Both the position numbers and the translations under genes were made by a program. The notes under the pieces are model-generated. The model was not told the DNA's origin. It ran no database searches and saw nothing but the letters and a program-made list of their open reading frames with translations. Below are positions 1-3,935 of a stretch of 64,000 nt of DNA, piece after piece. This stretch comes from a phage. Position 1 is the first letter of the stretch, and each line of letters starts with the position of its first letter. Location: the sequence record PZ019084.1. The stretch is one strand, 5' to 3'.

Positions 1-535
1 GAATATTGTCACGCTCTCCTCGCGCCATCCAATAAACAGGAACACTTAATATTTCACTCGCATGGTCGCAGTGGTGAGCAAGATCGTCAATATAACAAAT
101 CACGTTATATTTCTCTTTTGCCTTTTTAAATAACTCTTCTTTTGAAGAATCATGACCACACATCATTACTTCTGAGAAGGCACCAGGAAAAAGAGCATTC
201 AAATTAAATTGACGATTCAGCAGAGCGTCAATAGAATCACCCAATGCTGTAACAGCTACAAAATTATAATCTTCTTTTAATTTGTTAATTACACACAGGG
301 CATCTTTATATGGAGACAAGTAACGAATAAAATCTGATCGATTGTATTTTTCAATTAGCTTGACACCGAGTTCTTCATCGCAATTAAAGAGTTTACCTGG
401 AGAAATAAATTTCTCATCTTGGATCATTTTTAAAATATGTTCTAACGGAAGATTATATTTCTGAGCAAAATAAGGAAGGCCTGATTGCCAGCTTAAACAT
501 ACTCCATCAATATCAGTTAAAATAGTAGGCTTCAT
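1..535 (-). CDS. HAD-superfamily hydrolase-like protein; start codon at 535..533, C-terminus lies beyond the window start
   Basis: Hand translation from the ATG at 535..533 gives MKPTILTDIDGVCLSWQSGLPYF... with a DxDGV motif typical of HAD phosphatases. Frame is open to position 1. The ATG overlaps the stop of the upstream ORF (ATGA). Confidence 0.5.
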   Translation of the reverse strand, partial: MKPTILTDIDGVCLSWQSGLPYFAQKYNLPLEHILKMIQDEKFISPGKLFNCDEELGVKLIEKYNRSDFIRYLSPYKDALCVINKLKEDYNFVAVTALGDSIDALLNRQFNLNALFPGAFSEVMMCGHDSSKEELFKKAKEKYNVICYIDDLAHHCDHASEILSVPVYWMARGERDNI

Positions 536-996
536 AGAGAGTCTCTTAATAGATTTAACACATCAATAAATTCAGCTTCGGTTAGTATTGTATCATCTTT
601 TGTTAGACCACTAGCCATGCTGTGCTTCAAAACTTTTCCTTTCGAGGCTTGTAATGCATCGCGAAAGCCCTTGTTTTGGAACGCTGCTTCAAAATATGCA
701 TTTGTGTATAATTCTTTCCACGCCGGGGAATATCTTGAAAACGGAGTTCCAAGCCAGAAGAGGGTCCCACGGTCCTGAGCTCTAGCATAAGACCTTCCAG
801 CTTGTTGGGCGGCAAGCCCGGATAACCCAAATATACGACGTTGCTGTTCAACATTTTTCACCTTACATCCTTGGAGGAATCCTTCGAGACCTCCGAATTG
901 AATACCATCCATGACGAAAGGCCATTGGGCGAAATTACTTAATGCGCATGATGGCCATCTAAAATTGCTTCTTATCTCTAACTCAGACATTTTCAA
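532..996 (-). CDS. NADAR (YbiA/DUF1768-like) domain protein
   Basis: 154-aa ORF; the SNFAQWP..DG..E..Q..K block and C-terminal region align by eye with E. coli YbiA. Recognition from memory, no search run. Confidence 0.55.
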   Translation of the reverse strand: MKMSELEIRSNFRWPSCALSNFAQWPFVMDGIQFGGLEGFLQGCKVKNVEQQRRIFGLSGLAAQQAGRSYARAQDRGTLFWLGTPFSRYSPAWKELYTNAYFEAAFQNKGFRDALQASKGKVLKHSMASGLTKDDTILTEAEFIDVLNLLRDSL

Positions 997-2593: not shown

Positions 2594-2625
2594 AAATAAA
2601 AAAAAAAGGACTCCCGAAGGAGTCC
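2594..2625 (-). terminator. rho-independent terminator (GGACUCC-CGAA-GGAGUCC hairpin plus U-run)
   Basis: Perfect 7-bp stem with CGAA loop followed on the minus strand by a run of about 10 U; located just after the stop of ORF 2631..2849. Confidence 0.7.
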
Positions 2626-2630
2626 TCAAC

Positions 2631-2849
2631 TTATGCTTTCTGCTTACCAAAACGAGAAGCATCATCTCGAAGAACCGCACGTGCTCGACGCATGATCTTC
2701 TCAACAGTTTGATTGATACGAGAGTTCGACCCACGCTTGTAGCCAGCGCGTTTAGAATCACCAACTTTCTTTTCAACTGCTTTCTTTGCTTTAACTTGTT
2801 TTGCCATTATAAATTCTCTTTTAAATGAAAATGCAGGACTTATTGGCAT
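2631..2849 (-). CDS. small lysine/arginine-rich basic protein (alternative start at 2807 gives 58 aa)
   Basis: 72-aa ORF, highly basic (MAKQVKAKKAVEKKVGDSKRAGYKRG...), terminator directly downstream. Confidence 0.5.
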   Translation of the reverse strand: MPISPAFSFKREFIMAKQVKAKKAVEKKVGDSKRAGYKRGSNSRINQTVEKIMRRARAVLRDDASRFGKQKA

Positions 2850-3203
2850 TGCCTGCGCAAGCCCTCAAGGGGAACATAGGTTTTGGATATTTAACGACAG
2901 GATAACCATAAACCCGTCATCATACCTTATAGCTCTTATCTGTTGCACACCGTTAGCTTAAAGGTTCCGGGTCCGATTTCTCGAGGATAAGATATATACT
3001 GATGGATATATAGGCCTTGAGGCGTACTCCCGATTGGCCATCACCTCGGGGTAGCATGCACTTGCCGCTATAAGAATAACATTCAAGAGGTACACCGTAA
3101 AACTGCCGGGGTCTTAAAACTATAATGATTCGCAAATCATTAATCAGACAGTTCGACGGCTCCTCGTTTTAACTTCACACTAAGGCAGTGACTCTCCAAT
3201 AAA

Positions 3204-3452
3204 TTACTTCAGTGTTACCACAAAGTGACGAACTGCTTTTCGTGCGGCAGAAGCCAAAGGCTTAGCATATTTAAGTTCATCTTTTTCCTGAAGCTCAGCA
3301 GCTAATGCAGTTTGAGCGGGATTCAGATGTTTGAAATAACGCAGGATTTCAAGAGCTTCGGCTTCAACATCAATAGATGCGCCATAGTTTTCGTGACCAT
3401 TATTCCATGCGTTTCGTTGCAGTTCAAGAGCGTGTTGTAATTGTTTAATCAT
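3204..3452 (-). CDS. rIII: rIII lysis-inhibition accessory protein
   Basis: 82 aa; sequence MIKQLQHALELQRNAWNNGHENYG... matches T4 rIII from memory, and sits next to gene 31 as in T4. Confidence 0.85.
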   Translation of the reverse strand: MIKQLQHALELQRNAWNNGHENYGASIDVEAEALEILRYFKHLNPAQTALAAELQEKDELKYAKPLASAARKAVRHFVVTLK

Positions 3453-3599: not shown

Positions 3600-3935
3600 T
3601 CACTTATAAAGACACGGAATAGCTTTATAGTGACAGGTAACAAATTTTTGTTTAATTTCTTTTGGCTGCTTAAGACCCAGAGCTACAAAAGGATGCGGAA
3701 CGTTTCGAATTTGACCAACTGGAAGAGAAGTCAAATCACCAACTTCGCAGAAACCTTCAGGAACATCAGGACCAACAGAGTGAATTACACACAGTTCGGG
3801 AACTTCACCTTGAACACGTTTACCGATAATAAGTCCTGATTCTGTAACTTCTTCATCACCGGCTTGTGCAGGTTCAGAAACTAAAATAACATATTCACCG
3901 ACAGCACGAATTGGTAGCTGTTGTACTTCAGACAT
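3600..3935 (-). CDS. 31: gp31 co-chaperonin (GroES analogue for capsid folding)
   Basis: 111 aa, same length as T4 gp31; adjacent to rIII. Confidence 0.85.

Follow-up and report, generated by a model that had tools for sequence, protein, structure and literature searches.

The stretch of phage DNA analyzed here (64,000 nucleotides; hereafter, the window) is a segment of a Tequatrovirus (T4-like) genome, its closest match being phage SA21RB (99–100% identity). Every gene in the vicinity of positions 2850–3203 is carried by the minus strand (Table 1), and this layout identified the region as the intercistronic spacer between rIII, which is 98.8% identical to T4 rIII at the nucleotide level, and a homologue of T4 gene 30.9, for which no relative was found in Pfam or the PDB. 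In T4, 30.9 is annotated as a 72-aa form, which corresponds here to 2631–2849 (minus strand) and begins at an upstream ATG (2849) inside the spacer. The start codon conserved across genera is that of the 58-aa form (MAKQ; 2807), and the non-coding spacer was therefore taken to be 2808–3203. A scan revealed no promoter-like or terminator-like site within it. The GC content of 2850–3203 was 44.4%, compared with 35.5% for the window, which is in the top 1% among segments of 354 nt; a 147-nt segment inside it, referred to below as the core, reached 46.9%. No conserved ORF was found in the core, as each of the six frames contained at least one stop codon in 29 of 29 homologues, and the only 60-aa ORF (2953–3135, minus strand) had no match in Pfam or PHROG. 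The region is thus, as an earlier note on this DNA had proposed, a GC-rich, non-coding island between rIII and the gene for a small basic protein. Another local rise in GC (46–48% in 200-nt segments) was observed at 600–1000, over an ORF of 154 aa (532–996, minus strand).

Table 1. Features of the rIII-30.9 locus and of the core RNA (window coordinates).
Feature	Coordinates	Strand	Evidence or remark
gp31	3600–3935	−	
rIII, upstream cistron	3204–3452	−	phrog_1457 "lysis inhibition accessory protein", E 4.7e-44
Complete rIII-30.9 intercistronic spacer	2808–3203	−	ORF list, PHROG hits, phage annotations
T4-type 3′ segment of rIII	3074–3203	−	Alignment with T4; fold of complete spacer
Hairpin AAUGAUUUGCGAAUCAUU within T4-type 3′ segment	3124–3141	−	
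Core, 147-nt structured RNA (main finding)	2927–3073	−	Covariance model R1, 180.6 bits
P1 closing stem, 5′ strand	3067–3071	−	Pairs with 2929–2933; 4 of 5 pairs covary
P2, 3 bp	3064–3066 with 3013–3015	−	C-G to U-A in fHe-Yen9-01
Internal loop between P2 and P3	AAGUGCAU (3056–3063) opposite CUCAAG (3016–3021)	−	
P3 hairpin arm, on top of P2	3022–3055	−	9 of 13 P3 pairs covary
Loop L3, GAUG	3039–3042	−	
P4 hairpin, 7 bp	2993–3012	−	
Loop L4, CCAUCA	3000–3005	−	CAUC of L4 pairs with L3 GAUG
3′ domain	2934–2992	−	P5 enclosing three-way junction
P5	2986–2992 with 2934–2940	−	2–3 covarying pairs
P6, loop GAAA here (mostly GNRA in family)	2973–2984	−	2–3 covarying pairs
P7	2968–2972 with 2947–2952	−	2–3 covarying pairs
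L7, 15-nt loop of P7, GAACCUUUAAGCUAA	2953–2967	−	
J7/5 linker, GCAACA	2941–2946	−	
Module (c), conserved hairpin	2877–2926	−	2 stem pairs with compensatory changes, 14 distinct sequences
Module (d), small hairpin GU(A/U)CCCnnnnGGGCUUGCG	2851–2878	−	Compensatory stem variants
Gene 30.9 homologue, downstream cistron, 58-aa lysine/arginine-rich protein	2631–2807	−	phrog_1427, E 3.5e-31; T4 annotation
Strong intrinsic terminator, 3′ of 30.9 homologue	2606–2627		Terminator scan

The island was compared by BLAST with ∼50,700 phage records. Its ends (2850–2927 and ∼3151–3203) matched T4, T6, and most Tequatrovirus phages; its middle (query positions 84–218) matched T4-like phages of Klebsiella, Enterobacter, Citrobacter, Serratia, Erwinia, Edwardsiella, and Yersinia, with 93–96% identity in Klebsiella and Enterobacter phages and 81% in Erwinia phage IT22. 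The rIII-30.9 spacer of T4 is just 202 nt long, and its alignment with the spacer studied here leaves a clean gap of ∼150 nt without direct repeats at the junction; the core is absent from both T4 and T6, which is why the island could not be assigned in the earlier note to any known T4 element. Between ∼400 and 417 of ∼1000 T4-like phage records, from at least 10 genera, carried the core, with one copy per genome and, in all cases examined, between the rIII and 30.9 homologues and on their strand. In IMG/VR, it was present at 15 of 40 rIII loci. When rIII loci without the core were searched with its covariance model (R1) with filters off, no weak or degenerate copy was detected, that is, presence was all-or-none; in the window, R1 matched the core only. 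A metagenome scan added only near-identical copies from T4-like phages. With respect to a host or plasmid origin, a pattern scan across 185,579 genomes of bacterial species yielded 37 hits, all of which were rejected by the model; BLAST found no match to the core in 5,426 E. coli genomes, and no copy was present among the PLSDB plasmids (two 30-nt chance matches only).

Across 20 sequences, 88 of the 147 positions of the core were invariant. Between this coliphage and phages of Klebsiella, Enterobacter, and Citrobacter, the core was 93–95% identical, compared with 70–84% nucleotide identity for rIII, gp31, and 30.9 in the same phages. A non-coding segment more conserved than its coding neighbors is typical of densely constrained RNAs, although recombination between co-infecting T4-like phages may inflate the apparent conservation. 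Within Tequatrovirus, the spacer was strongly mosaic and fell into discrete coverage classes (100%, 56–58% [T4 and T6], 48–50%, 36%, and ∼21%), which suggests repeated gain, loss, or replacement of cassettes.

The folding energy of the single sequence was unremarkable (z = −0.61 and −0.13 for the two strands, not significant), and the structural case therefore rests on covariation. From a plain MAFFT alignment of 20 sequences, RNAalifold predicted 44 pairs; compensatory double substitutions were seen at 15. For the final counts, 30 distinct sequences were used, collected via R1 and including the divergent copies of EcS1 and fHe-Yen9-01, in alignments fitted to the covariance model: 25 of the 44 pairs showed compensatory double changes, in contrast to three to six when the partners were slid by one to three columns, and none of 500 shuffles reached the observed value in any of five measures. 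Covariation was seen in all seven helices. Standard pairs occupied 99.2% of 1313 cells, a count that overstates the number of events because the homologues are closely related (effective sequence number 0.85; perhaps nine independent lineages). G·U cells outnumbered A·C cells 62 to 1, which indicates that the functional strand is the mRNA sense strand and which is not explicable by duplex DNA. Compensatory pairing above slid and shuffled controls is the generic mark of a conserved structured RNA, and the covariation analysis across homologous phages proposed earlier thus came out positive. Of the identities that the earlier note had offered, that of a structured RNA is strongly supported, by the covariation in the core and not by the helices cited there.

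The covariation-based fold (RNA position n = window coordinate 3074 − n) consists of seven helices, with a perfect four-way junction of P1, P2, P4, and P5, a three-way junction, and a hairpin whose cap is mostly a GNRA loop. P1, one pair of which was AU in 15 sequences, GC in 13, and UA in one, enters the four-way junction without linkers and is lengthened to 8 bp in this phage (CUUAUAGC/GCUAUAAG). The internal loop between P2 and P3 has the consensus AAGnGCAU opposite CUCAAG. Loops L3 and L4 are predicted to form a kissing interaction of 4 bp, spotted by eye, which ties the P2-P3 arm to the neighboring hairpin P4. It was paired in 100% of cases across the sequences, its outer pair being GC in 25, AU in two, and UA in two, and it comprises 5 bp in EcS1 and fHe-Yen9-01 (AAUGA/UCAUU). 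Further tertiary pairs were sought among the unpaired columns, which yielded just a possible mini-stem of 2–3 bp in L7. An alternative helix, GAGGCG/CGCCUC, which would form a pseudoknot with P3, was rejected because of uncompensated breaks in IT22, PS49, and EcS1. L7 has the consensus GA[A/C]CCUUUAAGCUAA; in the most divergent members, it was kept except for a short variable mini-stem in mid-loop. In these same members, the P3 arm was altered in length and sequence, whereas J2/3, the flanks of L7 (GA[A/C]CC and AGCUAA), and J7/5 were kept, which suggests that the functional surface is formed by the 3′ domain and the internal loop.

Overall, the spacer is a series of independently folding RNA modules. 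The T4-type 3′ segment is present in T4 and not in Klebsiella-type phages. Module (c), with the layout UAUGAUG-stem-loop(GUUnnnGGUUAUC)-stem-GU(U)AAA..AAACC, has an invariant loop and is found in T4 too; in some genera it lies on one side of the core and in others on the opposite side. Module (d), a CCCnnnnGGG hairpin followed by CUUGCG(G), is kept from T4 to the Erwinia and Serratia phages, with the stem variants CCC/GGG, GCC/GGC (IT22), and CCUC/GAGG (L055), and the Shine-Dalgarno sequence of 30.9 in Muldoon-type phages comes from the 3′ tail of this hairpin. The two short GC helices quoted in the earlier note do exist (CCCTCAAGGG at 2862–2871 and TGATTCGCAAATCA at 3126–3139); the first is part of module (d) and the second of the T4-type segment, so both lie outside the main element, and the dominant multi-helix RNA of 147 nt had been missed. 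The order of the modules differs between phages. Here, the T4-type segment is followed by the core, (c), (d), and the ribosome-binding site of 30.9; elsewhere, Klebsiella-type phages and Muldoon have the order (c)-core-(d), IT22 and Moonvirus-type phages have core-(c)-(d), and EcS1 has (d)-core-(c), with a (d)-like copy upstream of the core. Distances vary as well: the core starts ∼8–130 nt past the rIII stop codon (∼8–25 nt in Moonvirus-type phages, IT22, and EcS1; 130 nt in Tequatrovirus) and ends ∼40–170 nt ahead of the 30.9 start codon (∼40 nt in Muldoon). Such an arrangement, in which folding RNA modules are reshuffled between genera, appears to be little described.

In spacers of the Klebsiella/Moonvirus type (L049 1960–2030; L003 and L004), the sequence GGGAGCU 3′ of module (d) can pair with a distal GUGCUCCC, ∼45 nt apart, and another hairpin overlaps the ribosome-binding site of 30.9. 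Judged from these sequences, the two could possibly constitute an extra regulatory module, which is absent from the window.

The comparison with Rfam that had been proposed yielded no family match for the island, the core, or the window. Rfam 15 (4227 models) did not match the core at E ≤ 10 on either strand, a permissive search of the island was also empty, and no gathering-level hit was obtained anywhere in the window; the best score in the core (11.8 bits) was a chance match to a frameshift element with a gathering score of 55. ARAGORN detected 0 tRNA or tmRNA genes in the window, and a tRNA-like reading of the core was discarded because the contact between loops links arms 2 and 3 rather than the equivalents of the D- and T-arms. 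A similarity to the SAM-I riboswitch seen by eye was dismissed as chance or topologically incompatible, and so was a resemblance to loop B of the hairpin ribozyme (GUAUAU...UUAUC); these strings are base-paired and covary in the core. A full-text literature search turned up no description. The main text of a catalogue of more than 10,000 phage RNA candidates mentions neither T4-like phages nor rIII (PMC10690425).

The core is without a name or a model, and public records call it a terminator or small hypothetical proteins. These annotations look spurious; they comprise a "rho-independent terminator" in SA21RB and CDSs for a "hypothetical protein" in G4498, Marfa, and NM4.3 (sites: window 3009–3047 and 2953–3135; L002 1742–2039; L003 2056–2263; L026 1210–1335). 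The supposed intrinsic terminator at 3009–3047 has no U tract, P3 being followed by CUCAAGGCC.

Taken together, 2927–3073 (minus strand) encodes a 147-nt RNA domain of an uncatalogued family that is limited to T4-like phages of Enterobacterales. As a whole, this account is in our judgment probable; its further step, that the RNA is an autonomous module recognized by a partner, is the likeliest of the mechanisms considered, yet less likely than not. This step is suggested by the compact and strand-specific fold, the single copy in a fixed neighborhood, the restriction to Enterobacterales, and the dispensability in T4 and T6; the variable spacing and module order were likewise counted in favor of autonomy. 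Counted against it was the constant presence of 30.9 downstream, which is equally compatible with a cis-regulator.

As to mechanism, we tentatively favor a tightly folded, autonomous RNA module that is recognized by a conserved partner and acts as a decoy, sponge, or scaffold. Lacking a promoter and a terminator of its own, the core would be carried on the message that spans rIII and 30.9. Early, middle, and late promoters all serve rIII in T4 (PMC9409239), from which it follows that the core is probably transcribed throughout infection. The invariant unpaired surfaces would then be bound by the partner, for which an Enterobacterales-wide host factor, a phage protein, or a small ligand are candidates, and the core could act either inside the mRNA or, once excised, as a stable RNA. 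Its function would be accessory, as T4 and T6 manage without it. No antisense targets of L7 or J7/5 were found in the window outside the locus itself.

A bolder and slightly more speculative notion is that the core is the first known representative of a novel class of functional RNA, be it a self-cleaving ribozyme, a ligand-sensing aptamer, or a decoy that neutralizes a host factor or an anti-phage defense. No large virulent phages have been studied as thoroughly as the T4-like phages, and phage therapy makes wide use of them (Tequatrovirus and its Klebsiella or Enterobacter relatives). That such a family was overlooked is attributable to the model phage T4 having lost, or lacking, the core. 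The natural presence/absence pattern (T4 and T6 without the core, close relatives with it) offers near-isogenic comparisons for its role.

Among the other explanations, an element of mRNA processing or stability is the one that fares best, even if we regard it as unlikely. The core would be either a novel self-cleaving ribozyme, splitting the rIII message from that of 30.9, or a compact fold that blocks 3′-to-5′ exonucleases and thereby stabilizes the 31-rIII mRNA. Its intercistronic position and, in Moonvirus-type phages, IT22, and EcS1, its closeness to the rIII stop codon fit such a role, as does the architecture: combinations of a four-way junction, conserved internal loops, and contacting loops occur in natural ribozymes (hairpin, twister-sister, and VS), and phage intergenic regions often contain self-cleaving ribozymes. 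However, none of the ribozyme models of Rfam 15 matched, no cleavage site could be inferred from the core, and in Tequatrovirus rIII and the core are too far apart (130 nt) to sit easily with this role. Moreover, a simple hairpin would be enough for protection from exonucleases, which leaves the invariant loops unexplained.

Marginally less probable still is a cis-regulatory aptamer, either of the riboswitch kind or a leader bound by a protein, that tunes translation or stability of 30.9 to a ligand or a protein. A 30.9 homologue always lies downstream of the core, as expected for an aptamer with a constant target gene; complexity and invariant junction nucleotides recall riboswitch aptamers; and in Muldoon the distance from the core to the 30.9 start is short (∼40 nt), with hairpin (d) adjoining the Shine-Dalgarno sequence. 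On the other hand, no conserved expression platform (a terminator or a helix sequestering the Shine-Dalgarno sequence) was found, the distance to the 30.9 AUG ranges from ∼40 to ∼170 nt, and module (c), module (d), and the T4-type segment are interposed in lineage-specific order. T4, furthermore, expresses 30.9 without the core, and no Rfam riboswitch model matched. The earlier suggestion of a regulatory 5′ region of 30.9 keeps some ground on this account, weakened by the variability in distance and module order.

An element acting at the DNA level (a miniature mobile-element remnant, a PeSL-type recombination cassette, or a protein-binding or origin site) is very improbable. The clean presence/absence polymorphism of ∼150 bp among close relatives, the short inverted repeats at both ends, and the mosaic spacer may evoke such an element, and a degraded mobile-element remnant had been among the options of the earlier note. 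Yet, every genome holds a single copy in fixed synteny, the T4 junction has no direct repeats, and the bacterial species genomes, E. coli genomes, and PLSDB plasmids mentioned above hold no copies. What looked like a terminal inverted repeat covaries as an RNA stem, the internal helices covary too, and the strand-specific G·U bias is impossible from duplex DNA; a MITE-like element was rejected for these reasons, and the early-promoter and terminator consensus typical of PeSLs is lacking (PMC2839356). A protein-coding gene, decayed or very small, as the CDSs annotated over the core in G4498, Marfa, and NM4.3 and the 60-aa ORF in the window would imply, is scarcely credible, because all homologues have stops in all six frames and, in the longest frame, paired substitutions prove to be non-synonymous, and also in view of annotated ORFs that vary in frame and extent between phages, frame-breaking indels in EcS1, and the lack of any Pfam or PHROG hit.

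Among known systems, the PeSL cassettes of T4-type phages, which pair an early promoter with a terminator-like stem-loop and recur throughout the genome (PMC2839356, PMC4122927), resemble the core in being conserved non-coding modules of T4-like phages that lie at the borders of gained or lost genes and are shuffled by recombination. The core is not one of them, as it has neither promoter nor terminator signal and is single-copy; it contains seven covarying helices instead. A 10-nt identity links the core (GUGCAACAGA, 2941–2950, minus strand) to what we take to be CR-II of M1, the RNase P RNA of E. coli, and in the core this string lies in a conserved unpaired stretch. The flanking helices, however, differ in topology, other short matches occur in reversed order, and no RNase P model hit was obtained. 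The identity is thus probably due to chance (expectation ∼0.05 for one 10-mer) and serves as a lead only.

Also comparable are rnaC and rnaD, the species 1 and 2 RNAs of the T4 tRNA cluster. They differ from the core in locus (the tRNA cluster versus the rIII-30.9 spacer), and rnaC ends in a tRNA-like T arm, which the core lacks. Homology was rejected, as R1 with filters off scored at most 1.7 bits over rnaC/rnaD (locus 1888–2151), its best hit anywhere in the T4 tRNA cluster being a chance match of 7.2 bits (E 0.52). Like the core, they are phage-encoded RNAs of T-even phages (∼120–140 nt) without a promoter of their own; they are produced by processing of a longer transcript and have no known function.

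By architectural analogy, the core may also be likened to riboswitch aptamers, several of which contain kisses or junctions of this kind (the L5-L13 kiss of the cobalamin riboswitch, the L2-L3 kiss of the lysine riboswitch, and the four-way junction of SAM-I). They would share their size, a four-way junction, pairing between distant loops, junction nucleotides that do not vary, and a gene that is constant downstream, whereas the core differs in having no Rfam match, no recognizable expression platform, and no constant distance or module order toward the ORF. With the hairpin, twister-sister, and Varkud satellite ribozymes, it would share a perfect four-way junction, a tertiary contact between its adjacent arms, a conserved internal loop, and the site in a phage intergenic region, despite the fact that no Rfam ribozyme model matches it. 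The overall profile of the core, better conserved than the neighboring protein genes and endowed with junctions, a GNRA loop, and a covarying kiss, is that of ribozymes, riboswitches, and RNP scaffolds.
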